From positions 30,203 to 94,202 of the forward strand of contig JAQUPE010000001.1 of the NCBI GenBank assembly GCA_028716745.1: a stretch of 64,000 nt of DNA. Direction: 5' to 3'. The position numbers and the translations under genes are program-made. The stretch is from Minisyncoccota bacterium. Lineage in GTDB: Bacteria > Patescibacteriota > Minisyncoccia > UBA6257 > 02-FULL-45-10c. Shown one piece after another: positions 1-16,741 of this stretch. Below the pieces are notes generated by a model that saw only the letters and a list, made by a program, of their open reading frames with translations, was not told the DNA's origin and did no database searches. Each line of letters begins with the position of its first letter. The stretch's first letter is position 1.

Positions 1-2
1 CA

Positions 3-812
3 AATAAAGTTTCTGAAAAATTAGCCAAAATAAGTTCTAATTATTATATTCCTCCGAAAAATGACTGGGGTTATTATATTAATAGTTGTGTTGGCGGCGG
101 TATTTCTTTGCCGACAAAAGAAAATATACTTCCGAGCGCCTACAAGGCTTATTCTATATTTCAAGATAGTAAGACAACTGCGATTGCTACTATAAATGCT
201 ATTGCCGGATCTTCCGCAACAGCAATTGGAAATATTAAAAATTCACGATATCAGTGCGGTACAGATTGGGGTGGCGCGCCAAGGTATTGCAATTGTCCTA
301 ATAATTTTACTGTTTTGCCGTCCAGCAGCAGCTTGCAGCATACATATAGTATTAATTCTTGGGACAATCCGGGATCTGTTTCTTCTTCTAATACCGGCAA
401 TTCATTTATAGATGTTAATGTCGACTATAACCAGGAATATGCTTACATTATAAAAGTTCCGGCCACTGATCGCGATGGTTATATAACTACCTATTCAGAT
501 CCTATTACTGGAGAAACCCCAAATGTTCCTCCTGCGCCTCCGGCTTTGCCTTCCTGCAGTTTTTCTGCCGATCCATCAATGGTTCCGGCTCACTCAGCTT
601 CCAAAATCACTTGGTCTTGCCAAGAATCCAATACTTGCGATTTATATGAAGGCACAAGCAAAGTAGATTCCGGAATAAGCGGCGATTATACGGCAAACAT
701 AGGAACTACTTCTAAAATATATAAGCTTTCTTGTTCGGGAAACGGGGGATTAAAAGATTTTTCTCTTACAATAAAGGTTTCTTCTATCCAATATAAAGAA
801 GTAGCGCCGTAA
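3..812 (+). CDS. secreted Cys-rich Fn3/Ig-like surface protein, 5' partial (paralog of 2684..4441)
   Basis: Reading frame is open back to the window start. C-terminal ~260 aa align with the C-terminus of the 585-aa protein (shared YxCGTDWxG..KYCNCP, VPATDRxGxTTTYSDPIT, SCxFSAxPxxVPAHSxSKIxWxCQxSxxCxLYEGTS, C-terminal YxEVAP). Confidence 0.6.
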   Translation, partial: NKVSEKLAKISSNYYIPPKNDWGYYINSCVGGGISLPTKENILPSAYKAYSIFQDSKTTAIATINAIAGSSATAIGNIKNSRYQCGTDWGGAPRYCNCPNNFTVLPSSSSLQHTYSINSWDNPGSVSSSNTGNSFIDVNVDYNQEYAYIIKVPATDRDGYITTYSDPITGETPNVPPAPPALPSCSFSADPSMVPAHSASKITWSCQESNTCDLYEGTSKVDSGISGDYTANIGTTSKIYKLSCSGNGGLKDFSLTIKVSSIQYKEVAP

Positions 813-832
813 ATTTTAATTAAAACAAAAAT

Positions 833-1408
833 ATGAAAAAGAAAATTATATTAATTATTGCGGTGTTAATCGTTGTTGTAATATTCGCGGCTTTGTACTG
901 CGTAACTCTTAGGGTAAAAGTTATTCCGGTGGAAGCTTCGGCGCTGGAATTAAATCCCGAAGTTATTCAGTTGGATAATTTTTCGGTTAATATTCCAAAG
1001 GGATGGGTAAAAGAGGATTCCGGTACCGATTTAATGATGATTAATCCGGTGGGAATAAAATTATCGGATAATGAAAGCGCTATAGAATATTTTTCGGTAA
1101 AAAAAGAGCAGTTGGCGGGAGTAGCTATAAATAAATATATCGAGAATTTCAAAAGTTTTTTGGACAGAGTAACCGTAAAAAGCGAATTTACGCATCCGGA
1201 AAATGGGGATTTTATAAATACTTTGCCGGCTTTTTACATTGAATCGGATACCGAGCTTAAGGGGATAAGCTTCAAGAAGCTTAATGTGATGATAGTCGAG
1301 GATGCCGGAAATATTTGGCAGTTAAATTACAGCGTTTCTGCAGAAAATTGGAGCAAATATAAAGCTGCTTACTATAAATCGGTTAGCCAGTTTGCATTAA
1401 AACAGTAG
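833..1408 (+). CDS. small N-terminally membrane-anchored protein (paralog of 4450..5100)
   Basis: N-terminal hydrophobic helix; shared NPVG..., FKKxNV..., NxWxLNY motifs with the 216-aa protein. Confidence 0.55.
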   Translation: MKKKIILIIAVLIVVVIFAALYCVTLRVKVIPVEASALELNPEVIQLDNFSVNIPKGWVKEDSGTDLMMINPVGIKLSDNESAIEYFSVKKEQLAGVAINKYIENFKSFLDRVTVKSEFTHPENGDFINTLPAFYIESDTELKGISFKKLNVMIVEDAGNIWQLNYSVSAENWSKYKAAYYKSVSQFALKQ

Positions 1409-1454
1409 GGTTTTTTGGGCGAAAACACGGCTCATTACCGTGTTTTTGTTTACC

Positions 1455-1483
1455 TTGACTTTTCCTCTAAAATGTGCTATATT
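1455..1483 (+). promoter_or_regulatory. sigma70-like promoter TTGACT-N17-TATATT
   Basis: ttgact(1455-1460) + 17-nt spacer + tatatt(1478-1483), ~70 nt upstream of the 1556 ATG. Confidence 0.45.
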
Positions 1484-1555
1484 AAAAGTAGTAAAAATAA
1501 GCTTTTTTGACATAAGAAGTAATATAAGCTGAAAAATCTTGAAGGAGGCGTAGCC

Positions 1556-2602
1556 ATGAAGAAAATCTTTTTGGCAGTCGCAGTCGTTTCAATGGTCTAC
1601 GGATTGGCTATCGCCGACGGAATGGAAAACATTTCCGGCATAGAACAGTCCAGCCAGGTTGTTGTCGATACCGCCGCTACGGCAGGTGTCGGCATCAGCT
1701 CACCGGCAGTTTCTGGAGTTGAGAAATCGACTTCCACGGAACTGGATGGTCGCAGACAGAGAAGGCTGGAAAGAATCCAGCTGGAAGAGTCTGAGACGAA
1801 ATCCGGACACAGGTGGCAGGTTTCTGTTTCCAAGGAATCCGATTATGGATTTGGGAAAACTAACCTGGAATCACTGGATCATTTTGTGCAGATTATCAAC
1901 AATAGTTTAGTTACTGTTGATATTCCTTTCATTAATTTTCACTATGAATTTGAGGAGCACGATCCTGTTTTGTGTCCGCGCCTTAGAAACATCCAGACAG
2001 AGAACCGAAAGTTGGCGATTGGATGGAGAAATGGAGTTGTAGAAATTGGAGTGTCTGCTGGCCAGTGGTCTGCAAATACTGATGGCTTTCATCAGGATTT
2101 TTACGGACACATTGGAAATCCAGCAGTAATATTTTTTACAACCACCGTTGATATGTCGCCGATTTACGTCTCTGTAACATCTACCATGCTTGATTTAAAA
2201 TTCAACCTTAACGCTCCCAGTAATGACAAGAGGCGGACATGGTGTCCGTTTATTGACCTGCAGGCGGGGACGTTAAAGCTTGATATTTCGGGCAAGGTAA
2301 AGTTCTGGGGAGATGAGTACACGAGCTCAAATCCAGATTATCCTTATCAGGGATATCCTATTATTCCGGTGCAGTACGAATTCAGCTCTGGCGATCCGGT
2401 TATAGCAGGAAAGGTTACGCTGGGGATGGAAGCAAGAATTATTTGCGGCTTGAAAGTCGGCGCAAATATCAGCTTCCGCAGCGGAAACGCCTATTACTGG
2501 CTGACGCGTACCGGAGACGACGGAAAGGTTGTAAGGAAGAAGATAGAAAAGGGGCTCGAGGATGGGGCGGTTGTTTCAACCTCCATTTCTTACGAGTTCT
2601 AG
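1556..2602 (+). CDS. secreted beta-rich protein with signal peptide and C-terminal Phe (OMP-like signature), higher G+C
   Basis: MKKIFLAVAVVSMVYGLAIADG signal peptide; ends ...SISYEF; strong SD ggaggcgtagccATG; G+C visibly higher than flanks. Confidence 0.5.
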   Translation: MKKIFLAVAVVSMVYGLAIADGMENISGIEQSSQVVVDTAATAGVGISSPAVSGVEKSTSTELDGRRQRRLERIQLEESETKSGHRWQVSVSKESDYGFGKTNLESLDHFVQIINNSLVTVDIPFINFHYEFEEHDPVLCPRLRNIQTENRKLAIGWRNGVVEIGVSAGQWSANTDGFHQDFYGHIGNPAVIFFTTTVDMSPIYVSVTSTMLDLKFNLNAPSNDKRRTWCPFIDLQAGTLKLDISGKVKFWGDEYTSSNPDYPYQGYPIIPVQYEFSSGDPVIAGKVTLGMEARIICGLKVGANISFRSGNAYYWLTRTGDDGKVVRKKIEKGLEDGAVVSTSISYEF

Positions 2603-2614
2603 ATCGTATCATTG

Positions 2615-2656
2615 CCGCCAGGCGCATGAAGTTATGCACCTGGCGGATTTTTTTAT
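2615..2656 (+). terminator. rho-independent terminator
   Basis: 12-bp stem ccgccaggcgcat/atgcacctggcgg (1 mismatch) followed by a T-run. Confidence 0.6.
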
Positions 2657-2683
2657 ATTTATAATCCTGATATAATTAGTTTA

Positions 2684-4441
2684 ATGAAAAAATCTTTGAT
2701 TTTAGTTGGTTCGTTTATTTGTTTGGTGGGAATATTTGGTTTTTCAAAATCGGCTAATGCCTGGTTTTGCTGGCCCAGTCCTGTTGATGATTGTAATGTT
2801 CAGTGTAGGAATCTTGCTCCAAATAGCGACTTGAATGTTTATACTATTAACGCGGATTGGGTTGGAACAAGAGGTCATACAGATGGCAGAGGAGAGGGCG
2901 TGGTTAGTATGAGGGGTTTGGCAACAGAGACTTATTTTATTAAAGACTCGGCGGGTAATGTTGATACATTGGCAAAAGTTACTGGAAGCGGACATTGCGC
3001 TAATGTTCCTCCATATGTTACTTCTTCGATTGCTTTATATAGCGCTCCTCCTAAATATCCTTTGCCGGCAGGCGGAGTAGTCCAGGGTTCCGCTGTTTAC
3101 TATGTTGCAAAAGTACAAAGTGTTTTAGGTAATTGGATTTCTGGTGGTATAAATTTTAATTTTTCTTCTACAATTTCTGAGTATGCTCGTAATTATGAGG
3201 TGGTAGATGACCGTACTCATGGCCATGAAAGCAATGCTTGTTTTAGTTGTGGAAATAATATTAGCTGGCCAAGTTGTGCCGAAGAATTTGGCGCCGATTA
3301 TACCGAAATAGATCGTAAAGAATTTGGCGGTTTTTGTCATTGTGAAAAGAGAATAACTTGCCGCAAAAGTCAGGGTTTTCAAGATATGGCTATTTCCGGT
3401 TATACAAATGCAATGATAAATACGCCAGGTAATATTTTCACCGGAACAATTTCTGCTACTGATAGCGCTGGCAATACGACCACATCAAGTGCTACCACCC
3501 CGGTTATTCCTCCTCCACAAGAAATTAAAGCCACGGGAACGGCTAGCTGTAGCTGCTCCAATGGAGTTTTAACGACGTCTTTGAATGTAAGCGGAACCCA
3601 AGGGGTTGAGTATGCAATTTTAAGATCGGATAAAGTTGTTGATAATTTAGCGGAAAGGACAAGTAATTATTATATTCCGGGAAATGGCTGGTGGGGGCCG
3701 ATAAGCAGCTGTGTAAATGGAGTTGTTAAAACTTTGCTTCCAATTGAAAATGGATTGCCTTCCGGGTATCAGACATATTCAATATTTAAGGATGGCGCAG
3801 TAATGCCTGGTCTTAGTGGATTATCTAGTGCTTGGAATATACCCATAGGAACAGGTACTAACCAAAAATATTGCTGTGGCACAGATTGGTTTGGTAATTG
3901 CAATAAATATTGCAATTGTCCTTCTTATACAACATTGCCATCAAGCTCTAATAATAAACACAAATATTCAGCGGTGAGCTGGGGGAGCCCAACGACAGTT
4001 TTGCCTTCGCATGTTGGAGATGGAAACGCTTATGGTGATCAAGGATTAACCCCGGAGACTGGCTATGTTTATCTTGTCCGAGTTCCGGCGACAGACAGAG
4101 AAGGTTTTACAACTACTTATTCAGATCCAATAACAGTAACAACTCCGGCATGCGTTGCGCCGGTGGTAGTCCCTCTTCCTTCTTGCGCTTTTTCTGCTAG
4201 TCCGACCACTGTTCCTGCGCACTCAATTTCCAAAATATCTTGGGATTGTCAGAATTCTATAAATTGCAGTTTATATGAAGGCACGAGCGTCGTTGCTTCA
4301 GGCATAAAGAAGGATTATACGGCAAATATAGGAACCGATGATAAAACATATAAACTTTCTTGTACGGGCGATGGAGGGTCAAAAGATTTTACTCTTAGTG
4401 TAAAAGTTTCTTCTGTCCAATATCAGGAAGTGGCGCCATAA
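2684..4441 (+). CDS. secreted Cys-rich protein with C-terminal Fn3-like and Ig/PKD-like domains
   Basis: Signal peptide MKKSLILVGSFICLVGIFGFSKSANA; many Cys; YVYLVRVPATDREGFTTTYSDPITV resembles an Fn3 domain; paralog of 3..812. Confidence 0.6.
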   Translation: MKKSLILVGSFICLVGIFGFSKSANAWFCWPSPVDDCNVQCRNLAPNSDLNVYTINADWVGTRGHTDGRGEGVVSMRGLATETYFIKDSAGNVDTLAKVTGSGHCANVPPYVTSSIALYSAPPKYPLPAGGVVQGSAVYYVAKVQSVLGNWISGGINFNFSSTISEYARNYEVVDDRTHGHESNACFSCGNNISWPSCAEEFGADYTEIDRKEFGGFCHCEKRITCRKSQGFQDMAISGYTNAMINTPGNIFTGTISATDSAGNTTTSSATTPVIPPPQEIKATGTASCSCSNGVLTTSLNVSGTQGVEYAILRSDKVVDNLAERTSNYYIPGNGWWGPISSCVNGVVKTLLPIENGLPSGYQTYSIFKDGAVMPGLSGLSSAWNIPIGTGTNQKYCCGTDWFGNCNKYCNCPSYTTLPSSSNNKHKYSAVSWGSPTTVLPSHVGDGNAYGDQGLTPETGYVYLVRVPATDREGFTTTYSDPITVTTPACVAPVVVPLPSCAFSASPTTVPAHSISKISWDCQNSINCSLYEGTSVVASGIKKDYTANIGTDDKTYKLSCTGDGGSKDFTLSVKVSSVQYQEVAP

Positions 4442-4449
4442 ATAAATAT

Positions 4450-5100
4450 ATGAAAAAATCAAGAAAAATTTTAGTAATTGTTACCATGGTTGTCTTTATC
4501 GCTTCAATTGCGGCTTCGGCTTATTCTGTTTATTTATCCCGTTCAAATAATAAAGCAGTGGAAGGATCGCACCCAATTTTATTGTCCAATGCTTCTGTTC
4601 CGCAAAAAATAGCAAACTTAATACAGATTGATAAAAATATTTTTTCACTTAAAATCCCGGAAGGTTGGGAAGATCAAAGCCCGGCCAATACGGATTTTTT
4701 CCAGTTTTTAAATCCAGTCGGCGTGGTTAAGCCCGATTTAACCGGAGAAATAATAGAATTCGTTTCTGTTAATAAGGAAAGCCTTGGAGGAAAGAAGCCC
4801 AGCGTCTATGTAAGCGAATTTAAAAAGCTTCTTGATTCAAGGTATCCGCAAAGCAAGTTTGTATATTCGGAAGATAAAATATTTATAGGCGATCGTCCTG
4901 CTACATATATTGAAACAGACAATGTTATTGAAGGGATGAATTTTAAAAAGTTTAATGTGCTTATAGATGGCGGAAACAACAAAGACATCTGGGTTTTGAA
5001 TTATAATGTTTGGGCGGATAACTGGAATTTAAATAAAGATATCATTTATCAATCCGCAGCGTCATTTACGGATAAAACAAGCTCTACCACGGCTCAATAA
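4450..5100 (+). CDS. small membrane-anchored protein (paralog of 833..1408)
   Basis: N-terminal transmembrane segment; homology to the 191-aa protein. Confidence 0.55.
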   Translation: MKKSRKILVIVTMVVFIASIAASAYSVYLSRSNNKAVEGSHPILLSNASVPQKIANLIQIDKNIFSLKIPEGWEDQSPANTDFFQFLNPVGVVKPDLTGEIIEFVSVNKESLGGKKPSVYVSEFKKLLDSRYPQSKFVYSEDKIFIGDRPATYIETDNVIEGMNFKKFNVLIDGGNNKDIWVLNYNVWADNWNLNKDIIYQSAASFTDKTSSTTAQ

Positions 5101-5104
5101 TTTT

Positions 5105-5137
5105 AAAAAGCTCCGCAATGCGGAGCTTTTTATTTTT
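5105..5137 (+). terminator. rho-independent terminator (gctccgc-aat-gcggagc + T-run)
   Basis: hairpin plus TTTTTATTTTT. Confidence 0.65.
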
Positions 5138-5269
5138 GATTGACTAAAAGCCTTATTTTAGGTATTTTGTTTTCAGTATTATTGATAAAAGAAAATAAGA
5201 AAATTTTACAAAAGAGGAGGTGGATTGCTGGGAGCAGCGCGGGAAATTTAAAATTAAAAGGAGAAAGAT

Positions 5270-5995
5270 ATGAAAGTCAGAATTTTTCTGTTGTTGGCGG
5301 TAATGGTGTTGATTCTCTCGGCGTGCGGAACGTTCAAGTCTGAGTTGGTAAGGTATCAATATGTCCCTTACAACCAGAGTGAGCTGAAGCAGACCAAAGA
5401 AAACGTCACGCTGGAAAAAATCGATTCCAAAACCACGCCGGAGCATTTCTATTTTAGCGCTCCCAAGCGTGATGCCTATGGTCGGGCGCAAGTGGATAGC
5501 AACGGCCGGGCCATCATAACTCGCGGATGCGTTCGTCTAAAGGGACAGATCTGGGAACAATTCATAATAACCAACAACACCAACCGCGTTTTACGTTTAG
5601 GGAAGGTCTCTGTGAGATTGATTGATCCGGCGGGTAATCAGTATTACCCATTGACCAGGCAGGATTTAATTACTGCTACGATGCAGGTCTATGGAATTTC
5701 TTTAAACGAAGTAAACACGCCGTTCAATTTTGTGAAAGTGATAGATAACTTAACGGAAGTTTTGCCGAACATGTCTTTTACCGGCTGGCTTGTTTTTTAT
5801 GCGCCAACCTCGGAAATGCCTGGAGTTTGGAAAATAGGCATTTATGACATGCCGGTGAAAACCGAAGAGTCCGGGGAGGTAAAAAAAGTAGCCTTTTTCG
5901 AATTCAATACAGTTCTCAAAAAATTTGTTGATATTTACGAACAGAGCGGAATGTTCGGTAAATCAACTTTGGTTGAGACGAAAGAGGTGAAATAG
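5270..5995 (+). CDS. lipoprotein, hypothetical (higher G+C)
   Basis: MKVRIFLLLAVMVLILSAC lipobox; SD aaaaggag; composition richer in G+C than neighbours. Confidence 0.5.
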   Translation: MKVRIFLLLAVMVLILSACGTFKSELVRYQYVPYNQSELKQTKENVTLEKIDSKTTPEHFYFSAPKRDAYGRAQVDSNGRAIITRGCVRLKGQIWEQFIITNNTNRVLRLGKVSVRLIDPAGNQYYPLTRQDLITATMQVYGISLNEVNTPFNFVKVIDNLTEVLPNMSFTGWLVFYAPTSEMPGVWKIGIYDMPVKTEESGEVKKVAFFEFNTVLKKFVDIYEQSGMFGKSTLVETKEVK

Positions 5996-6102: not shown

Positions 6103-6489
6103 ATGAAACTTGGTAAAAACAGCGGACAGGCGATGTTGCTTACGGTTTTAATAATGACGGGAACTGTCATAGGCGCTACTGCTATAGCGGGCTATTTAAT
6201 GCTTTCACAGGTAAGGCAGGCGACGGATGTCGTCAATTCTTCCAAGGCTATATTTGCGGCGGATACGGGAATGGAATGGGCTTTTTATAATTTTTTTCAA
6301 TTAGATAATCAGGTTTGTCCCGGAGGCGCAAAAGACTATTTGTCGGAAAGAGAAAATGGCACGGATATAATGGAAAATGGATCATCTTTTACGGCTTCCT
6401 GTTCTTCTACTTCGGAACTCACAACTCTTAAATCCATTGGTGATTCCTACGATACTTATCGTGCTCTTGAGGCCTACATCGCTTATTAG
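6103..6489 (+). CDS. small N-terminally anchored protein, hypothetical
   Basis: ORF with N-terminal hydrophobic helix; TGaTATAAT extended -10 at 6087-6095 immediately upstream (possibly leaderless). Confidence 0.4.
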   Translation: MKLGKNSGQAMLLTVLIMTGTVIGATAIAGYLMLSQVRQATDVVNSSKAIFAADTGMEWAFYNFFQLDNQVCPGGAKDYLSERENGTDIMENGSSFTASCSSTSELTTLKSIGDSYDTYRALEAYIAY

Positions 6490-8836: not shown

Positions 8837-10276
8837 ATGGATTTAAAAAATCTTACAATTAAAAATTTCCATAAAGGATTGCTGGATAAAGAGTTCTCCG
8901 CGCATGAAATAACGCAGGAGTTTTTTGATTATATAAAGAAGCAAGATAAGAAAATAGACGCCTATTTAAGCCTAAATGAAAAGATGGCTTTGGAGCAGGC
9001 CGAACAAGCGGATTTAAGAGTGGCTAAAAATGAAAATGTCGGAATGCTGGCTGGGGCGCCATTGGCGATAAAAGACAATATTTTAATAGAGGGACTGCCG
9101 GCAACTGCGGCTTCTAAAATTCTTGAAAATTATATTGCGAGTTATGATGCGACTGTTATCAAAAAATTAAAATCAGCCGGAGCGGTTTTTCTTGGGAAAA
9201 CCAATATGGATGAATTTGCCATGGGTTCTTCAACGGAGAGCTCGGCTTTCAAGATTACAAAAAATCCGCACGATTTAAAACGCGTTCCGGGTGGTTCGTC
9301 CGGCGGTTCTGCGGCAGCGGTTGCTGCCGACATGGCGGTCGCTGCGCTTGGTTCGGATACAGGCGGTTCAATCCGTCAGCCTGCGGCATTTTGCGGAGTG
9401 GTGGGGCTAAAGCCGACATATGGCGCCGTTTCGCGTTTTGGAGTGATGGCGATGGCTTCCAGCTTGGATCAAATCGGGCCATTCGCTAAAACAGTTGAAG
9501 ATGCGGCAATTTTATTTAAAGAAATTTCCGGCCAGGATAAGCTGGATTCTACAAGCGCAGATGTTAAGTATGGCGAGGAAATTTTAAATCCAAAATTGGA
9601 AAATATTAAAAAACTGACAGTAGGTATTCCGGAAGAATATTTTATAGACGGAATGGATAAAGAAGTTTCAAAGGCGGTTGAATCGGCCATTAAAGACATA
9701 GAAAGTTTGGGAATTAAAACTAAAAAAATTAGTTTGCCTCATACAAAATATGCCTTGTCGGATTATTACATTATTATGCCGGCGGAAGTCAGCGCAAATT
9801 TAGAAAGATTTGATGGAATAAGATATGGTTCGCGCGAGAAGGCAAAAGATTTAATCGAGCTTTATAAAAAGAACAGAAGCGCCGGGTTTGGAGATGAGGC
9901 TAAAAGAAGAATTATTTTAGGAGCGTTTGTTTTGTCTTCGGGATATTATGACGCTTATTATGCCAAGGCTCAAAAAGTCCGAAGTTTGATAAAACAGGAT
10001 TTTGAAAATGCGTTTAAACAGGTGGATGTTATTTTAACTCCGGTAACGCCGACGTCGGCTTTTAAAATCGGCGAAAAGACAAAAGACCCGCTTTCTATGT
10101 ATCTTTCCGATATTTTCACAATACCGGCTAATTTAGCGGGAGTGCCAGCAATTTCTATTCCGATTAGCGGCAAGAGGGAATTGCCGGTAGCTTTTCAATT
10201 AATGGGAAAACCCTGGAAAGAAGTTGATATTTTAGGAATAGGGCAGTATTATCAAAAAATAAATCCAAATGCCTGA
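8837..10276 (+). CDS. gatA: Asp/Glu-tRNA amidotransferase subunit A (amidase)
   Basis: Amidase signature GGSSGGSAAAVAA; 479 aa. Confidence 0.92.
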   Translation: MDLKNLTIKNFHKGLLDKEFSAHEITQEFFDYIKKQDKKIDAYLSLNEKMALEQAEQADLRVAKNENVGMLAGAPLAIKDNILIEGLPATAASKILENYIASYDATVIKKLKSAGAVFLGKTNMDEFAMGSSTESSAFKITKNPHDLKRVPGGSSGGSAAAVAADMAVAALGSDTGGSIRQPAAFCGVVGLKPTYGAVSRFGVMAMASSLDQIGPFAKTVEDAAILFKEISGQDKLDSTSADVKYGEEILNPKLENIKKLTVGIPEEYFIDGMDKEVSKAVESAIKDIESLGIKTKKISLPHTKYALSDYYIIMPAEVSANLERFDGIRYGSREKAKDLIELYKKNRSAGFGDEAKRRIILGAFVLSSGYYDAYYAKAQKVRSLIKQDFENAFKQVDVILTPVTPTSAFKIGEKTKDPLSMYLSDIFTIPANLAGVPAISIPISGKRELPVAFQLMGKPWKEVDILGIGQYYQKINPNA

Positions 10277-10823
10277 TTTTGTTTATAAAGGAATAGATTA
10301 TTTTGTTCAAAATCTTCTCAATATAAGGGCGATTTTTAGCGATGCCTTGGAAGGAAATTATTGGTGGCTGAAAATGCTATCGGTAATTTTGTCTTTAGCT
10401 TTTTTGGCTTTGATTATTTATATGGCCGGCAAAACGCGTTATTTAAATATGAAGATAGAAAATTATATGGATGTTGCCGGAAAGAAAAATTTGTCTAAAA
10501 GAAGGTCTTTAAAAGCTTGGGAGCAGGTTAAAAAGAGAGTGTCTTCGGCCGATCAGCAAAATTGGAAGCTAGCTATAATAGAAGCAGATAAAATTTTAAA
10601 CGAGGTTTTAAAAGTTTCCGGATATTTAGGCGATAATTTAGGTCCGAAATTAAATCTTTTAACAGTGGCTCAGTTGTCCAATTTAGAAGATATTAAAAGG
10701 GTCCATAAAATTAGAGATAGGGTCGCTACGGAACCGGACTTTGCAATGACTCAGCAAGAGGCGATAGATATTCTTAAGATTTATAAAAAATCGTTAGTGG
10801 AGCTGAATTTGTTGGAAGAATAA
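10269..10823 (+). CDS. hypothetical membrane protein
   Basis: ORF with one transmembrane segment; overlaps gatA stop. Confidence 0.4.
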   Translation: MPDFVYKGIDYFVQNLLNIRAIFSDALEGNYWWLKMLSVILSLAFLALIIYMAGKTRYLNMKIENYMDVAGKKNLSKRRSLKAWEQVKKRVSSADQQNWKLAIIEADKILNEVLKVSGYLGDNLGPKLNLLTVAQLSNLEDIKRVHKIRDRVATEPDFAMTQQEAIDILKIYKKSLVELNLLEE

Positions 10824-10871
10824 TAGGGAACACTTTTCAAATTTTTAGGAGTAGTGTAAATTTAAACCAAT

Positions 10872-10945
10872 GCGGTGGTAGCTTAGTGGTTTAAAGCGCC
10901 TCCCTGTCACGGAGGAGACCACGGGTTCAAATCCCGTTCACCGCG
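10872..10945 (+). tRNA. tRNA-Asp (GTC)
   Basis: Manual cloverleaf: acceptor gcggtgg/tcaccgc, D-stem gctt/aagc, anticodon stem cctcc/ggagg with loop ctGTCac, T-arm acggg-ttcaaat-cccgt. Confidence 0.8.
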
Positions 10946-10989
10946 CATCTAAAATCGCCTTATGGGCGGTTTTTTGGTAGAATAGAAAT

Positions 10990-11571
10990 ATGAAAAAGAT
11001 TATTTTGGCAGTAATTATATTTTTAGTAGTTGCCGTAGGGCTTGTTTTATATTTTATTAATAAGAATCAGCCCAGTGAATTCAAAGATTTTAAAAATATT
11101 ACATATATAATTGATGGCAAATCGGTTGCTTTAATTAATGGTTTGTCCGAAACAGAAGCAACACCTGGTTCTTCCTCAAAAACGGTCACTCGTTATTTTG
11201 GGAATCAAGTAAAACATGATTTTAATGACGATGGGCGCGAGGATGTGGCCTTTCTTTTAACGCAGGAAACCGGCGGCAGCGGCGTCTTTTTCTATGTTGT
11301 GGCGGCTTTAAATACTCCAACGGGCTATGTTGGTTCACACGCTTTTTTCTTGGGAGATCGTATTGCTCCGCAGACGACCGCGATAGACGAAGGATTAACA
11401 TCTAGGGGTACTAATAGGAAAAATGTCATTGTCGTTAATTATGCCGTTCGTTTGCCGGGCGAGCCGTTTACAACCAGGCCTTCATTAGGCAAAAGCGTAT
11501 GGCTTAAACTTGATCCAGCCACTATGCAGTTCGGAGAAGTAGCGCAGAATTTTGAGGGAGAGTCTAAATAA
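10990..11571 (+). CDS. hypothetical membrane-anchored protein
   Basis: ORF, N-terminal transmembrane segment. Confidence 0.4.
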   Translation: MKKIILAVIIFLVVAVGLVLYFINKNQPSEFKDFKNITYIIDGKSVALINGLSETEATPGSSSKTVTRYFGNQVKHDFNDDGREDVAFLLTQETGGSGVFFYVVAALNTPTGYVGSHAFFLGDRIAPQTTAIDEGLTSRGTNRKNVIVVNYAVRLPGEPFTTRPSLGKSVWLKLDPATMQFGEVAQNFEGESK

Positions 11572-11585
11572 AATCTAATATCTTT

Positions 11586-11960
11586 ATGGGTTTGTACAAG
11601 CCGCAAAATATAAGTAAGTTCGTCTATTGGACGCCAAGAATACTGTCAATATTATTTATTCTTTTTTTGGCAATGTTTTCTTTGGATATTTTTGGAAATG
11701 GATACACATTTTGGCAGACAATTTTAGGATTGTTTATGCATAATATTCCGGTATTTATCTTATCGGCAGTTTTAATAATATCGTGGAAATACGAAATAAT
11801 TGGTGGAGTTGCCTTTATTTTGGCAGGATTACTATATGATTTTATGGGGCTTAAGGGCCCATTTGAGTGGTATAAGCTGTCCTGGATTTTAATAATATCC
11901 GGACCCGCATTTTTGATAGGAATTTTATTTATGATTAATTGGATAAAGAAAAATAAATAA
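11586..11960 (+). CDS. hypothetical integral membrane protein
   Basis: ORF, multiple hydrophobic helices. Confidence 0.4.
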   Translation: MGLYKPQNISKFVYWTPRILSILFILFLAMFSLDIFGNGYTFWQTILGLFMHNIPVFILSAVLIISWKYEIIGGVAFILAGLLYDFMGLKGPFEWYKLSWILIISGPAFLIGILFMINWIKKNK

Positions 11961-12002
11961 TTAAAGATCGCTTTATAGGAGATTATTTGATAAAATAAAA
12001 CA

Positions 12003-12434
12003 ATGGCTATTTTAAGCGATAGAGATAAAAAACAATTATTGCCGGCTTTTTTGTGGGCGGCTTTACTCACTGTTATTTCCTTAATTTGGTCGGTGGTATT
12101 GGCTTATGGCCTTACTGTTATAAGTGATAAGGGAAATATTGAAGGAATCGGAGCTATTTTGTTTGTGATAAGCATTCTTTTCCCGATTGTATATTATCCT
12201 CTTATTTTGTATTTCGCTTTAAAAAATATTTCTAAAAAATTACCAATGTATGAATATAGGCACAAATTATTTTTTTGCTCTTATATAGTAGGATTTTTAA
12301 TTATTATTGGAACAATAATTAGTTCTATATCTGAAAGAAAATTTGTTTTAGGCGAGATTGGTATTTTACCATTGATTATTTCTTTTATAGTCCCGGCTAT
12401 TTATAAGCCCAAAGATGATAGCTCTAGCAAATAA
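12003..12434 (+). CDS. hypothetical integral membrane protein
   Basis: ORF, multiple hydrophobic helices. Confidence 0.4.
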   Translation: MAILSDRDKKQLLPAFLWAALLTVISLIWSVVLAYGLTVISDKGNIEGIGAILFVISILFPIVYYPLILYFALKNISKKLPMYEYRHKLFFCSYIVGFLIIIGTIISSISERKFVLGEIGILPLIISFIVPAIYKPKDDSSSK

Positions 12435-12481
12435 ATTTTCCAAAATCGCCATGGTGGCGATTTTTTGTTATTATATAAAAT

Positions 12482-12934
12482 ATGAACAATAAAAAAGGAT
12501 TTTCTACATTAGAAGTAATTGTGTTGGCAGTCATTATTTTGGCTATAGGCGGGGGAGTTTATTATTGGCAAAACCAAAAAAATAATTCAGCAACCGAGCC
12601 ATTGGCTGGAGAGAATAAGAATATTTATACAAAGTGTTTTAAGCAAATATTTTCTGATAACAGCATTATTTCTGCTAAATTTACCTTTGCCGAGAATTCC
12701 GTTGAGGGTCCATTGTCTTATTTATGGGCGCAAAAAGATAATAGCATAGGTATTTTTAAGGGAATGTTGAAAGAGGGTCTTATTGTTGGGGATTATACTT
12801 TTATGTCTGAGGGTCAGGAATCTTTGGGAAAATCAGCTTTTCGTTATGATGGTAAGTCATTGATCCAGGGGTTCGGTCCTAACTTAGACGAGTTTAGCGG
12901 GGCAGTTACTTTAAATGAGGTGCCTTGCGAGTAA
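12482..12934 (+). CDS. type IV pilin-like / pseudopilin protein
   Basis: N-terminus MNNKKGFSTLEVIVLAVIILAIGG matches the prepilin cleavage/methylation motif (G|FSTLE + hydrophobic helix). Confidence 0.6.
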   Translation: MNNKKGFSTLEVIVLAVIILAIGGGVYYWQNQKNNSATEPLAGENKNIYTKCFKQIFSDNSIISAKFTFAENSVEGPLSYLWAQKDNSIGIFKGMLKEGLIVGDYTFMSEGQESLGKSAFRYDGKSLIQGFGPNLDEFSGAVTLNEVPCE

Positions 12935-12960
12935 TAATTTTCTTGGATTAATAATCAAAT

Positions 12961-13296
12961 ATGGCAGTTATTTTAACCGACGAAAATTTTGAAAAAGAAA
13001 TATCCAGCGCCGACAAACCGGCACTGGTTGATTTTTTTGCGCCATGGTGCGAGCCATGCAATATGCTTGCGCCGATACTAGAAAAGGTGGCTAAGGATTT
13101 GGAGGGGAAATTTATTTTTATGAAAGCTAATTTAGACGACGTTCCTTTGGCGGCTCAAAAGTTCGGAGTAGAGGTAATTCCAACAGTCATTTTATTTAGA
13201 GATAATAGGCCCATCAGCGGTTTTACCGGGTTGGCGCCGGAAGATGCCATTAAGGAATGGCTTGAAAAAATGATAAAAGAAAAAATAGTAATATAA
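12961..13296 (+). CDS. trxA: thioredoxin with atypical CEPC active site
   Basis: FFAPWCEPCNMLAPILEKVA thioredoxin-fold signature; 111 aa. Confidence 0.8.
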   Translation: MAVILTDENFEKEISSADKPALVDFFAPWCEPCNMLAPILEKVAKDLEGKFIFMKANLDDVPLAAQKFGVEVIPTVILFRDNRPISGFTGLAPEDAIKEWLEKMIKEKIVI

Positions 13297-13302
13297 ATAA
13301 TT

Positions 13303-13572
13303 ATGGAGGAAAATAATAAAGAAAAATTAATAAAAGAATACGTTGAATATGCTAAAAGCAACGGCATCCAATTAAATCCCGACGCAAGAGTTGTCGAGGG
13401 GATAGTCGGCGGTTTATTAAAGAACGAAGAAAAATATGGAAAAAGGTATTGTCCGTGCAGGAGAGTTTCCGGAAACCAAGAGGAGGATTTAAAGAAGATT
13501 TGTCCCTGCTATTATCACAAGGGCGAAATTGAAAAAGACGGACGCTGTTTTTGCGGATTATTTGTAAAGTAA
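13303..13572 (+). CDS. ferredoxin-thioredoxin reductase catalytic-subunit-like protein
   Basis: CPC-x14-CPC-x12-CFC spacing resembles the FTR catalytic chain CPC..CPC..CHC cluster; 89 aa; immediately downstream of thioredoxin. Confidence 0.5.
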   Translation: MEENNKEKLIKEYVEYAKSNGIQLNPDARVVEGIVGGLLKNEEKYGKRYCPCRRVSGNQEEDLKKICPCYYHKGEIEKDGRCFCGLFVK

Positions 13573-13578
13573 TTTTAA

Positions 13579-14040
13579 ATGGCATTAAAAGTTCCTTTCT
13601 ATAAACAAAGCGCTAATTATACATGCGGTCCCACCTGCCTACAGATGGTTTTTAAGTTTAACGGAATATTTAAAAGCGAGAAAAAGTTAGCCAAAGAGGC
13701 TCATACGCGCTCTCGGCATGGAACATATCGTCGGCATATGGCAGAAGCAGCGCGTAAAAATGGATTTTTTTGTTTTATTAAAAGCGGTTCTTCTCTTAAA
13801 GATATTGAAAAATTTATAAGGCTAAAATTTCCTATAATAGTTTATTTTATTGAACCCGCAGATAATATTGAGCATTATGCCGTAATTATAGGGTTGGATA
13901 AAAATAAAATTATTATGAACGATCCCTGGAACGGAAAGGGATTTAAAATGAATAAAATGGAATTTTTATCAAGATGGAAAAGCGAAAATGGCAGAATAAA
14001 TAAATGGATGATGGTTGCCTCAAAAACCGGATTTAATTGA
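13579..14040 (+). CDS. peptidase C39-like (papain-fold) domain protein
   Basis: YKQSANYTCGPTCLQMVF resembles the C39 Q..CGxxCLxM catalytic region; downstream His (EHYAVII) and Asp/Asn (NDPWNG). Confidence 0.5.
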   Translation: MALKVPFYKQSANYTCGPTCLQMVFKFNGIFKSEKKLAKEAHTRSRHGTYRRHMAEAARKNGFFCFIKSGSSLKDIEKFIRLKFPIIVYFIEPADNIEHYAVIIGLDKNKIIMNDPWNGKGFKMNKMEFLSRWKSENGRINKWMMVASKTGFN

Positions 14041-14070
14041 AAAATAACGCCATTTGTTTTATAATATATC

Positions 14071-14143
14071 CGCGGGATGGAGCAGTAGTTAGCTCGTCTG
14101 GCTCATAACCAGAAGGTCGTTGGTGCAATTCCAACTCCCGCAA
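14071..14143 (+). tRNA. initiator tRNA-fMet (CAT)
   Basis: cgcggga...gctcataacc...tcccgcaa; C1:A72 mismatch and three G-C pairs in the anticodon stem typical of the bacterial initiator; closely resembles the E. coli tRNA-fMet sequence. Confidence 0.85.
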
Positions 14144-14299
14144 CCGCGAAAAATGCGCTAAAGCGCATCTCGCGGCAGGCCATCAGAAATGGACTGACGC
14201 GGAATAAGCCCCCACAATTGTGGGGGGTTTATTTTATGCGAGCCCCGCGATAAAATCCTCAGATTTTATTTTGCGGGGCAAGTAATTTATAATTTAGTA

Positions 14300-14563
14300 A
14301 TGCATTATGTATATTTGTTAGAAAATATTGAAAATAAAAATTGGTATATAGGATTCACAGAAAACATTAAGAGAAGACTATTTGAGCATAATAATGGAAG
14401 GGGCGGACGGACAACAAGAATTGGTAAATCATGGAAAATGATATATTGCGAGGTTTATTTGAATAAAGAAGATGCTGTGGGTAGAGAGAAATTTTTAAAG
14501 GGTGGATCTGGAAGAAAATATTTAAAAAAGCAGTTGACTCATTATTTAAAAAATATAGAATAG
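14300..14563 (+). CDS. GIY-YIG nuclease domain protein
   Basis: YVYLLEN...WYIGFTENIKRRLFEHN = GIY-YIG motif; 87 aa. Confidence 0.7.
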   Translation: MHYVYLLENIENKNWYIGFTENIKRRLFEHNNGRGGRTTRIGKSWKMIYCEVYLNKEDAVGREKFLKGGSGRKYLKKQLTHYLKNIE

Positions 14564-14645
14564 TTTGACTTTTTATGTAAAATGTTTTAATATAAATATA
14601 ATTTGTAAGTTGACAGCATAATACAATCAAGTAAGGGGAGGGCGG

Positions 14646-15200
14646 ATGTTAAAGGGAGTAAAGAAGGTTTCAAAGGAGTACCATTCTCGGATCGGAAGCG
14701 AAATAGAAAAAAGGAGGGGTTCGGAATTTACCTATGAGGACATTACCAAGGCAACGGGGCTAGGCGTTAATACGGTTTGCTGCTGCCTTTCGCAATTCCT
14801 CAGGAAGGGGTTTCTCAACCGCGTTGGCCGTATAACCAGGAAGCCGAGAAATCTCAGGCTTTCCATATTTCGGCAAAGAAAACCTTTGCTGAAAATCGCT
14901 CCCGCAGGAAACGTCGCCGAAGAAGTCTGGCAGATATTCCAGGGCGTTCTGGAAAAAGAAGGCAGCCACTCATACATTTCCGCAAAGGAAATATGGGAAA
15001 GGACAAATGGCTGCAACAGAAAGAGCGTTCGGGGAGTGGTGTCCAGATTGTACTTATTAGGGTACCTCGAGAGATGGAAATCAAAATATTGCCTGAAGGC
15101 GCAGTATAGAGGCATGTCTAGACCTCTCGTGGTCAGCAAGCCCAAATACATCACCGTCCCGCTGGTGCAGCCGCAATACGCAGCCGCGGTCTCCCAGTAG
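14646..15200 (+). CDS. high-G+C hypothetical protein with two winged-helix-like segments (KYCLK motif)
   Basis: Strong SD ggggagggcggATG; ...RLYLLGYLERWKSKYCLK shared with the next gene. Confidence 0.45.
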   Translation: MLKGVKKVSKEYHSRIGSEIEKRRGSEFTYEDITKATGLGVNTVCCCLSQFLRKGFLNRVGRITRKPRNLRLSIFRQRKPLLKIAPAGNVAEEVWQIFQGVLEKEGSHSYISAKEIWERTNGCNRKSVRGVVSRLYLLGYLERWKSKYCLKAQYRGMSRPLVVSKPKYITVPLVQPQYAAAVSQ

Positions 15201-15227
15201 TTTCAGAGTTTTTTAAAAGTTTCACTC

Positions 15228-15260
15228 CCGCGTCACAAGCGCGGGATTTTTTTGTTTTAA
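15228..15260 (+). terminator. rho-independent terminator
   Basis: cccgcgtcacaagcgcggga + T-run. Confidence 0.55.
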
Positions 15261-15398
15261 AAAAGTTATTAACATATTGATTTATTTCAGCGTTAACGTA
15301 TATTTTTCTAGTGAAGTTATGAAAAATTTATTTTTGCAATAACTTAATAATAAATTAGTTTTTTTAAAGATTATTTTGGATGGAAAAGGAGGCGGTGA

Positions 15399-15788
15399 AT
15401 GCAAAGCGACTGTGTCGAAGGTTCTAAATCCCTCAAAGGGGGATATGTTCCTTTGAGGGAAGGGCTGGATTTCAAAGGCAGCGCTGTGGGAGTTGTCCGG
15501 ATGATTTTTCAGGAAATCGACAGGCCTCTTTTTGAAGAGGATATTCTCTGCTATGCCGAGATTTTTTCAAAAAAGAAATTCGGTGCGGCAAGAATAAAAA
15601 CTGCAATTTCCTGCCTGAATCAACAGGGCGCTTTTGAAAGAATCGGAAATAAATATTGTTTGAAAAGCGAATTTTCAAACAAAAAAGTTTCCGAAACAGC
15701 AGGAAAGAAGACAAAGGAAGTTGTCGTGGAGGCGACAGAGTTGGCCAGCGTTGGTTTGGCGTTAACCAGCGCCCCCGTGACGGCCTGA
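15399..15788 (+). CDS. high-G+C hypothetical winged-helix-like protein, paralog of 14646..15200
   Basis: SD aaaaggaggcggtgaATG; ...QQGAFERIGNKYCLK shared motif. Confidence 0.45.
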   Translation: MQSDCVEGSKSLKGGYVPLREGLDFKGSAVGVVRMIFQEIDRPLFEEDILCYAEIFSKKKFGAARIKTAISCLNQQGAFERIGNKYCLKSEFSNKKVSETAGKKTKEVVVEATELASVGLALTSAPVTA

Positions 15789-15950
15789 ATTAATACTCGA
15801 TTTGGTATCCTCGTTGCACAGCAGCGCGAGGATATTTTTTTACCTAAATATTGCCTGTACATTATAAGTTACTATTAACATATGCTATACAAGTTAAAAA
15901 CGCGTTTAATTTGTCAAAACCCGCTTAATTCATTATTATTTTAAATAAGA

Positions 15951-16023
15951 GCCGGCGTAGCTCAGTGGTTAGAGCGAGCGCTTCATAAGCGTTAGGTCGG
16001 TAGTTCAATTCTACCCGCCGGCA
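15951..16023 (+). tRNA. tRNA-Met (CAT), elongator type (could be tRNA-Ile lysidine)
   Basis: gccggcg..gctcagtggttagagc..agcgc-ttCATaa-gcgtt..ggtag-ttcaatt-ctacc-cgccggc-a. Confidence 0.8.
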
Positions 16024-16072
16024 CAGATAACTTTTTGTAAAAGACCCACAAATCTCTTATACTTTTAATATT

Positions 16073-16741
16073 GTGATAAAGAGCCATCCGATTAGATTTA
16101 TAATCATATTTTTGATATTGGCGGCAGCCGCCTTTGTTTTATTTGATAAGAAAAACACAACGGTTTATTCAATTCCATTTTTATCAATGGAAGAGAAGAA
16201 TAGCATGGCGGGAACGCTGGATAAGGTTAGAGAGGCCGGAGGAGAGGGGGTCGATGTTGTTTCCGAAAAAGCTACTCAGGCTAAAGATGCGGTAATAAAT
16301 AAGGGCAATGAAGTTGTTTCTGGCGCTGTGAAGGCAGTTAAAAAACAGGCTTTTGATTTATTTAAAAAAACAGTAAATGAAGAAATAGATAACTTAGGCA
16401 AGGATTTGAAAGTGGAGTCCAGGGCTCCTTCTTCAATAGATAATACGGCTAGCATTATAAATGTAGCGGGCGGGAGCGATTCAGTAGAAACTCATCCGGA
16501 GGTGATTTTTTCAATACAGCCTAATTCTTTGGCTTATTTTACGATTAAAAATATTGAAGAAGAAAATATAAAATTTGAAATTAATTGGCAGGATGGCGAA
16601 TCTAAGAACGGGACGATAAATAAGGGAGATACCATGATTTTATCCCATGGATGGAGCAAAAGCGGCAATTATTTGGTAGAATTCAAGATAATCACAACAA
16701 AAGAAACGAAGGGATATAATATCCCGGTAACAATATTTTAA
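16073..16741 (+). CDS. hypothetical membrane-anchored protein (GTG start)
   Basis: ORF with N-terminal transmembrane helix. Confidence 0.4.
   Translation: MIKSHPIRFIIIFLILAAAAFVLFDKKNTTVYSIPFLSMEEKNSMAGTLDKVREAGGEGVDVVSEKATQAKDAVINKGNEVVSGAVKAVKKQAFDLFKKTVNEEIDNLGKDLKVESRAPSSIDNTASIINVAGGSDSVETHPEVIFSIQPNSLAYFTIKNIEEENIKFEINWQDGESKNGTINKGDTMILSHGWSKSGNYLVEFKIITTKETKGYNIPVTIF

Follow-up and report, generated by a model that had tools for sequence, protein, structure and literature searches.

The stretch of DNA analysed in the current study (hereafter the window: 64,000 nt of contig JAQUPE010000001.1, from an uncultured, ultra-small Minisyncoccota bacterium) begins with five genes, here named bigA, smallA, mid, bigB and smallB. 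The big genes encode large secreted Cys-rich proteins, the small genes membrane-anchored proteins, and mid a further secreted protein. The cassette reflects a real and old pair-for-pair duplication in a conserved three-gene envelope module, and it represents an orphan family. Our preferred interpretation, held with about even confidence, is that the locus is a lineage-specific cell-envelope module of Paceibacteria (Candidate Phyla Radiation (CPR)/Patescibacteria), in which mid, big and small form a conserved unit, with big as a surface protein of the adhesin type and small as its membrane-anchored docking or assembly partner. Such a module best explains the data because it accounts for the paralogy, the gene order kept between different flanks, the tight big-small spacing and the terminator shared after small, as well as for the signal peptides and anchors (one hydrophobic segment per protein), the Ig-like domain of big and the PsbP-like matches of small. 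In addition, other proteins with the C-terminal tail of big (EVxP) also adjoin small N-terminally anchored proteins, including a second case of pair-for-pair duplication. An initial annotation of the window had proposed a surface module of two components; the big-small pairing is indeed kept in a second genome, but the unit has a third gene, mid.

All five open reading frames (ORFs) of that annotation were present at the coordinates given in table 1, and its proposal of pair-for-pair paralogy was borne out, as both the big and the small pairs align. The 5' part of bigA lies outside the window edge, and its full sequence was taken from an 8-kb sequence of this locus in an independent assembly (L001:562..2328). 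In the part inside the window, bigA and bigB showed 53% identity over 274 aligned positions (E = 4e-85); over the full length (588 and 585 amino acids (aa)) the identity was 45% by tblastn and 48% by MAFFT. For smallA and smallB it was 39% over 209 positions (E = 3e-32). The large proteins did not align in low-complexity regions only, but from end to end, with 16 invariant Cys columns and long motif blocks. The blocks quoted in the initial annotation (CGTDW..YCNCP, VPATDRxGxTTTYSDPIT, SCxFSA...YKLSC, YxEVAP, NPVG, FKKxNV and IWxLNY) were all found in the alignments. No third copy of the cassette was detected in the window by tblastn.

The module was also found in a second genome, the Paceibacterota metagenome-assembled genome (MAG) STD1_84 (contig JAQURY010000005.1, locus L002). 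The gene order there is a 185-aa gene, a 364-aa ortholog of mid, a 594-aa big and a 192-aa small, and the gap between big and small is 4–20 nt in all three known copies. The flanks differ, being dnaE and rpmF-nusB-rnc in the second MAG, and a radical-SAM gene and lipoprotein-pilin-ligA in the window. The same mid-big-small order between different flanks indicates that the three genes travel as a unit. mid had been regarded as a foreign-looking gene interrupting the cassette, a view that the second MAG contradicts: the mid ortholog (34% identity, E = 1e-38) lies directly upstream of big, i.e. in the same position amid other flanks, showing mid to be a conserved member of the module. A foreign origin of mid was rejected on the basis of this synteny and of a base composition within the range of the window.

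The G+C content of mid (0.463; GC content at third codon positions (GC3) 0.49) is, as had been stated, above the window mean, but it falls inside the spread of the window ORFs (G+C mean 0.406, sd 0.046; GC3 0.396, sd 0.084) and hence does not mark the gene as foreign. The big genes lie at the low end (GC3 0.28). mid was correctly described as having its own promoter and strong terminator, the former near-consensus and TG-extended, the latter a stable hairpin with a U-run. Its ribosome-binding site (RBS; AAGGAGG) is also strong. The layout of promoter, RBS and terminator around mid is the same in the second genome, where promoter, RBS and the initial ~100 nt of coding sequence are all conserved. 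Because a strong promoter and RBS occur with a G+C content inside the normal range, the G+C excess of mid looks more like an expression-level difference than a sign of foreign origin. Hairpins after smallA and smallB define three transcription units: bigA-smallA, mid, and bigB-smallB. The Rfam search of the window gave sub-threshold matches only, at the terminator (5071-5189), and no regulatory RNA.

Table 1. Features of the cassette (window coordinates) and of related loci (locus:coordinates).
Feature	Position	Strand	Description
bigA 3' part	1..812	+	frame 3..812 = last 269 codons of the 588-aa secreted Cys-rich protein; ends ...QYKEVAP, TAA stop
smallA	833..1408	+	191 aa; N-terminal membrane anchor and putative PsbP/DcrB-like extracytoplasmic domain; starts 20 nt past bigA
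Terminator-like hairpin closing bigA-smallA unit	1416..1452	+	-17.4 kcal/mol, z -5.0
mid promoter	1455..1483	+	TTGACT-17-TATATT, TG-extended
mid	1556..2602	+	348 aa; beta-rich body with ..SYEF end, preceded by a signal peptide and a conserved N-terminal stretch of ~80 aa; own transcription unit
mid intrinsic terminator	2615..2655	+	13-bp interrupted stem (hairpin 2615..2646) and U-run; -24.1 kcal/mol, z -4.7
bigB	2684..4441	+	585 aa; signal peptide (..SANA/W), N-terminal beta-sandwich ~28-92 (weakly supported), Cys-rich middle, Ig-like 496-578, disordered tail QYQEVAP, TAA stop
bigB 3' segment (Ig-like domain and tail)	4173..4443	+	75% nucleotide identity, ungapped, to bigA 544..814
smallB	4450..5100	+	216 aa; N-terminal membrane anchor and putative PsbP/DcrB-like domain; starts 8 nt past bigB
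Terminator hairpin closing bigB-smallB unit	5104..5132	+	-18.9 kcal/mol, z -7.1
~170-aa anchored partners	L011:4451-4951, L012:4450-4977, L013:2042-2569		

The family is rare. A word-indexed search of 5.8 billion clusters with bigB, smallB and a mid profile returned only this MAG and STD1_84, and a scan of one genome per species (185,579 species) returned only the second MAG. The full HMMER search of 1.84 billion representatives detected three full-length big members, namely bigA, bigB and the second-MAG protein; a Candidatus Pacebacteria MAG encodes a hypothetical protein with the same sequence as bigB. The invariant block ATDRxG[FY]xTTYSDPIT gave no match in a metagenome scan, and no relative was found among 2.9 million viral contigs. 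The viral result, together with the lack of a PHROGs match for any of the seven proteins, makes it exceedingly improbable that the locus encodes a phage receptor-binding protein with its assembly chaperone, or belongs to some other mobile element, even though the succession of a gene for a large beta-rich protein and a small gene does resemble a tail fibre and chaperone. The signal peptides and anchors, the housekeeping neighbours and the lack of flanking repeats beyond the paralogy also argue against such an origin.

Synonymous sites were saturated between the paralogs (synonymous divergence (dS) ~1.7), except in the last 95 codons of bigA and bigB, where dS was 0.76, with 67% amino-acid and 75% ungapped nucleotide identity. 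The low dS of this 3' segment, compared with saturation elsewhere, indicates that the stretch encoding the Ig-like domain and tail was probably homogenised between the paralogs at a later time. In the N-terminal half, each paralog is 46–47% identical to the second-MAG big and 40% identical to its sister; both being nearer to the second-MAG protein than to each other, the duplication is old. The order big-small-mid-big-small would most simply be derived from a duplicated mid-big-small unit from which the first mid was then lost. It was also found that the mid promoter, RBS and first ~80 codons (window 1450-1790 compared with L002:8710-9080) have nucleotide identities of up to 85% between the MAGs (60-nt windows) and a dS of 0.87, while the remainder of mid and the rest of the cassette are saturated at synonymous sites. 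Recombination between co-resident populations or constraint at the nucleotide level could account for the low divergence of the 5' end of mid.

The big proteins were confirmed as secreted and Cys-rich. Their Sec signal peptide has an A-x-A site; there is no second hydrophobic segment, and the mature part contains 18–27 Cys, of which 16 are invariant among the three known members. The Ig-like domain postulated at the C-terminus was likewise recovered in the AlphaFold2 (AF2) model (predicted local distance difference test (pLDDT) ~91 for residues 496-578), and Foldseek matched this beta-sandwich to PKD/Fn3/Ig domains, with a probability of ~1.0 to PKD domain 1l0q, SoxZ, ICAM-1 D1 and the Fn3-like module of CbhA. 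With ~1,950 other proteins in the HMMER search, big shares only profile positions ~480–570. This 85-residue domain, present in e.g. P0064, P0124 and P0007, is repeated in tandem in very large proteins, with up to 19 copies each, and no Pfam or NCBIfam model matched it in the members scanned. big thus has at its C-terminal 85 residues the same domain as surface proteins with Ig-like (PKD/Big/Fn3-type) repeats, but in a single copy followed by the EVxP tail, and the rest of big is without relatives.

The Fn3 label given to big could not be upheld, as no Pfam fn3 match was obtained at E<=1 and the AF2 confidence was below 50 in residues ~280–490; an indirect signal for the Fn3 region is that a few HMMER matches extend over profile positions 433–570. 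Residues 30-90 gave sub-threshold matches to Por_Secre_tail (21.6 bits for bigA and 17.9 for the L002 big, compared with a cut-off of 27; no match for bigB), and AF2 modelled them as strand-rich with a pLDDT of ~50–57, so that a small N-terminal beta-sandwich is weakly supported. A C-terminal sorting domain of the type IX secretion system (T9SS) was considered and rejected, since the match is below the cut-off and sits N-terminally, right after the signal peptide; at most it points to a similar small beta-sandwich. PDB sequence and profile searches with big, mid and small returned chance-level matches only.

That small is membrane-anchored, as initially annotated, was supported by a single N-terminal hydrophobic segment (Kyte-Doolittle hydropathy 2.5–3.4) after a Lys-rich start, with no lipobox, from which a membrane-tethered, extracytoplasmic location of the protein, like that of DcrB or CyanoP, is predicted. 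The ~150 residues after the anchor appear to resemble PsbP/DcrB, with matches that are sub-threshold but consistent. Over the full length of the model, PsbP matched four of the five small-family members (best E = 1.3e-4); for smallA the match (E = 0.019, 15.5 bits, cut-off 23.5) covered profile positions 11-154 of 155. Other matches were to PsbP_2 (1e-3) and DcrB (0.12), and PsbP, PsbP_2 or DcrB was hit by all five members tested.

Proteins of the PsbP/Mog1/DcrB fold are protein-protein scaffolds, and include the membrane-anchored periplasmic DcrB (PMC7716261). Like DcrB, small is predicted to be membrane-anchored and outward-facing, but the anchor of DcrB is a lipid and that of small a transmembrane helix, and the likeness in fold is predicted from sequence. 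The Eag chaperones (DUF1795), which have the same fold, are encoded next to the large secreted effectors that they serve (PMC4524185), as small is encoded beside big. Unlike small, however, Eag proteins are cytoplasmic and are encoded upstream of the effector, whose N-terminal transmembrane segments they bind to load it into the type VI secretion system; none of this applies here.

In the proposed module, big would be exported by the Sec pathway, acquire disulfide bonds outside the cell and function as an adhesin-type binding protein exposed at the surface. The same mRNA would yield small, which would reside in the cytoplasmic membrane, exposing its PsbP-like domain on the outer side, and would keep its cognate big protein at the surface, or help to mature it there, as a docking or assembly factor. 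For mid, the proposed role is that of an abundant (highly expressed) secreted partner in the envelope. Signals for export, the types of domain, the operon arrangement and the conservation of gene order are observed at the locus, and the interaction of big with small and the adhesive role of big are inferred.

The toxin and immunity pair suggested as an alternative in the initial annotation found no support. The layout, in which the gene for a large secreted protein directly precedes a small gene on the same transcript and both have been duplicated together, is reminiscent of polymorphic toxin-immunity loci. In such a pair, big would be the secreted toxin and small the membrane-anchored immunity protein, and duplication would diversify specificity. 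Pfam, NCBIfam and PDB sequence searches, however, detected no toxin, Rhs, LXG, PAAR or peptidase domain. Moreover, the C-terminus, which in polymorphic toxins is the seat of the variable warhead, is here a plain Ig-like domain and the best conserved part of the protein (67% identity between the paralogs, compared with 40% in the N-terminal half). big is exported by an ordinary Sec signal peptide, and the domain of small is predicted to face outward and appears to resemble a scaffold fold. A toxin function is therefore considered very improbable.

The signal peptide of mid, MKKIFLAVAVVSMVYGLAIA/DG (the slash marking the cleavage site), is its sole hydrophobic segment. The N-terminal ~80 residues are unusually conserved between the two MAGs, and the body of the protein is beta-rich. 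A C-terminal aromatic residue and the YxF pattern are classic signals of outer membrane proteins (OMPs; PMC3582582), and the C-termini of mid (..VVSTSISYEF) and of its ortholog (..RFYIRVGCEF) both fit this published pattern, as do 12 of the 82 window ORFs (15%). The ortholog also matched OMP_b-brl, below the cut-off (E = 0.012, 16.3 bits compared with 28.7), while no OMP family in Pfam or NCBIfam was matched by mid of the window. The AF2 model of mid, built from a two-sequence alignment, had a mean pLDDT of 30. Further beta-rich proteins with signal peptides and OMP-like ends (..ALFAL, ..VRYGF and ..INAGFK) are encoded in the second MAG (L002:8106-8663; L006:5254-5889, 1990-2634), which is surprising for a supposedly monoderm lineage. 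Kinship of mid with such neighbours (185 aa in L002, 211 aa in L006) was rejected, as hhalign found no similarity.

These features raise the question of whether mid is a beta-barrel of an outer layer, or one inserted in the host membrane, which exports or anchors big in a two-partner- or usher-like manner with small as an accessory. Like OMP beta-barrels (OMP_b-brl, YxF), mid has a signal peptide, a beta-rich nature and a ..YEF-COOH end, features that the ortholog repeats with its ..GCEF end and weak family match, and the signal-peptide protein ending ..VRYGF lies directly upstream of P0111, a protein of the second MAG with an EVxP tail. CPR cells, however, have so far been described as monoderm (PMC8871954), the OMP matches are sub-threshold and restricted to the ortholog, the model is of low confidence and the C-terminal pattern is unspecific. 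In addition, the highly conserved N-terminal 80 residues stand apart from the rest of mid, the other OMP-like neighbours show no similarity to it, and bigA has no mid gene upstream. A beta-barrel role for mid is thus judged unlikely, although OMP-like ends on proteins of the mid type could be the sign of an outer layer that has gone unrecognised, or of a component targeted to the host membrane. A literature search for beta-barrel proteins in CPR bacteria found no paper.

Several observations weigh against the envelope module as proposed. The big family is known from only two MAGs, which co-occur, contigs of both being present in one sequencing run (SRR22315506). Distant relatives of small (~27% identity) occur on two metagenome contigs, L004 and L005; on L004, where the context can be read, the gene is not beside a big-type gene, and L005 ends 166 nt upstream of its small relative. 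The expectation that small genes are paired with big genes elsewhere thus held for the second MAG, the sole other genome with the family, but not for L004, and small relatives without an adjoining big indicate that the small family is broader than the pairing. The small protein of L002 is 53% identical to smallA and 36% to smallB, whereas the L002 big protein lies about equally far from both paralogs. As the identity patterns of the two families do not mirror each other, co-evolution of big and small was rejected. All PsbP-type matches of small are below the Pfam curated cut-offs, and the AF2 model is unusable for most of big (residues 93-495), so that a domain with enzymatic or toxic activity may lie in the Cys-rich middle. 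Finally, ~29% of the window ORFs have hydrophobic N-termini, which makes adjacency to an anchored protein weakly informative by itself.

The restriction of the family to two genomes in the same run, the commonness of hydrophobic N-termini and the distant small homologs found alone would also fit unrelated neighbouring envelope genes that were copied by one segmental duplication and have no functional link. This is unlikely, because the order and the 4–20 nt spacing have been kept in three copies that are saturated at synonymous sites and lie in two different neighbourhoods.

The three known big proteins end in YKEVAP, YQEVAP and GEVKP (EV[AK]P-COOH), in each case followed by a genuine stop (window 792-812 and 4421-4441), and the last six residues are disordered in the AF2 model. 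The C-termini of the best 150 of the ~1,950 HMMER matches were examined, 147 of them from outside the big family. An EV.P end was present in five of these 147, compared with 0.03 expected (P ~3e-10), although the five are not all independent, some being related C-terminally. Tails were found on other secreted Cys-rich proteins, namely EEVKP on P0111 (second MAG) and IKEVSP on P0153 (Liptonbacteria MAG), and further on P0107 and P0151 (WREVAP) and P0103 (WIEVNP), with a near variant, WREVSF, on P0140. The tail (hydrophobic-x-E-V-x-P-COOH) follows at least three different preceding domains, and two of the bearers outside the family were traced to CPR MAGs. The tail-bearing proteins matched no Pfam or NCBIfam model at curated thresholds.

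In three genomes, a ~170-aa membrane-anchored protein (31–37% identity; table 1) is encoded directly upstream of ~1,200-aa proteins ending W-x-E-V-x-P/F. Another contig (L010:1-9488, GCA_964509365.1) encodes two paralogous tail-bearing proteins with 49% identity, one of them at L010:1-2268. Each of these genes is followed by a convergent gene for a ~260-aa N-terminally anchored protein, and the two anchored proteins are also paralogs (34% identity, E = 3e-44). A tail-bearing gene and its small partner have thus been duplicated together at two independent loci, the window and L010. A link between the tail and PsbP-like partners was rejected, as tblastn detected no small-family homolog at the other tail loci and the L010 partners are not PsbP-like. 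Since the partners are not PsbP-like and hydrophobic N-termini are common, the association of the tail with a small anchored neighbour is suggestive but not proven.

The tail may be a previously undescribed C-terminal signal for recognition or anchoring of Sec-exported surface proteins in CPR bacteria of the Parcubacteria type, each protein being retained or matured by an adjoining single-pass membrane partner. The partner families would be interchangeable: PsbP-like in the window, ~170 aa and upstream in L011-L013, and ~260 aa and convergent in L010. This reading is tentative, and we regard it as rather improbable. LPXTG/sortase, PEP-CTERM/exosortase and the T9SS C-terminal domain likewise involve a short conserved sequence at the very end of secreted proteins whose architectures are unrelated. 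Unlike LPXTG and PEP-CTERM proteins, big ends at Pro (TAA stop), without a hydrophobic helix or basic tail. A literature search for a C-terminal sorting signal in CPR bacteria found no paper.

Other genes were noted near those of tail-bearing proteins. A VanZ-C39_2 fusion is encoded two genes upstream of P0103 (L013), and a radical-SAM gene lies three genes upstream of P0111 (L006:2826-3860). Genes for an Lnt-type apolipoprotein N-acyltransferase occur within a few kb of two tail-bearing genes (L006:429-1904, L008:8344-10023), and an ICMT/PEMT-type methyltransferase gene (L008:7741-8373) is found two genes downstream of P0153. The proximity of Lnt and methyltransferase genes may be conserved Parcubacteria synteny.

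The window carries housekeeping genes typical of a CPR genome (ligA, gatCAB, pheST, trmD, rpsB, PBP, Mur ligase and dnaK). Directly upstream of bigA, just outside the window, is a radical-SAM/SPASM-type gene (L001:1-381), to which the radical-SAM gene near P0111 showed no similarity by tblastn. A stand-alone Peptidase_C39-like gene (13579-14040) lies amid small ORFs without a Pfam match (10269-16741), some of them with hydrophobic N-termini. The cassette is followed by a lipoprotein gene (5270-5995; lipobox ..LSAC, GC3 0.53, own terminator) and a candidate gene for a PilX_N-like minor pilin (6103..6489).

Type IV pili are reported to mediate host attachment of CPR bacteria (PMC9894109, PMC12206443). 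With the PilX_N-like gene 1 kb downstream of the cassette, big might be an adhesin on a type IV pilus, its tail or Ig-like domain contacting minor pilins. This is highly doubtful, as the PilX_N match is weak and far sub-threshold (E = 0.1), the window ORFs that were scanned included no genes for pilus assembly, and the pilin and lipoprotein genes do not adjoin the module in the second MAG.

Attachment to other cells is the presumed lifestyle of CPR bacteria. To our knowledge, type IV pili are the sole structures of these bacteria so far linked with it, and many large Cys-rich secreted CPR proteins are unannotated. Large Cys-rich extracellular proteins have been proposed to function in attachment in genomes of Peregrinibacteria (PMC4736985). 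They resemble big in having a signal peptide, 3–5% Cys, no functional annotation, variation between paralogs or strains, and a proposed role in attachment. They differ in belonging to other families and in their average length of ~1,650 aa, whereas big has ~590 aa, three known members and the fixed partners small and mid.

The locus thus offers a compact, conserved three-gene example of a surface protein with a fixed membrane partner, which could be examined in expression and pull-down assays. Leads worth following are the EVxP tail and the OMP-like mid. If the tail is a sorting or docking signal, the surface proteomes of CPR bacteria would become predictable from sequence, and it would suggest a way in which surface proteins are kept in place in a lineage described as monoderm.

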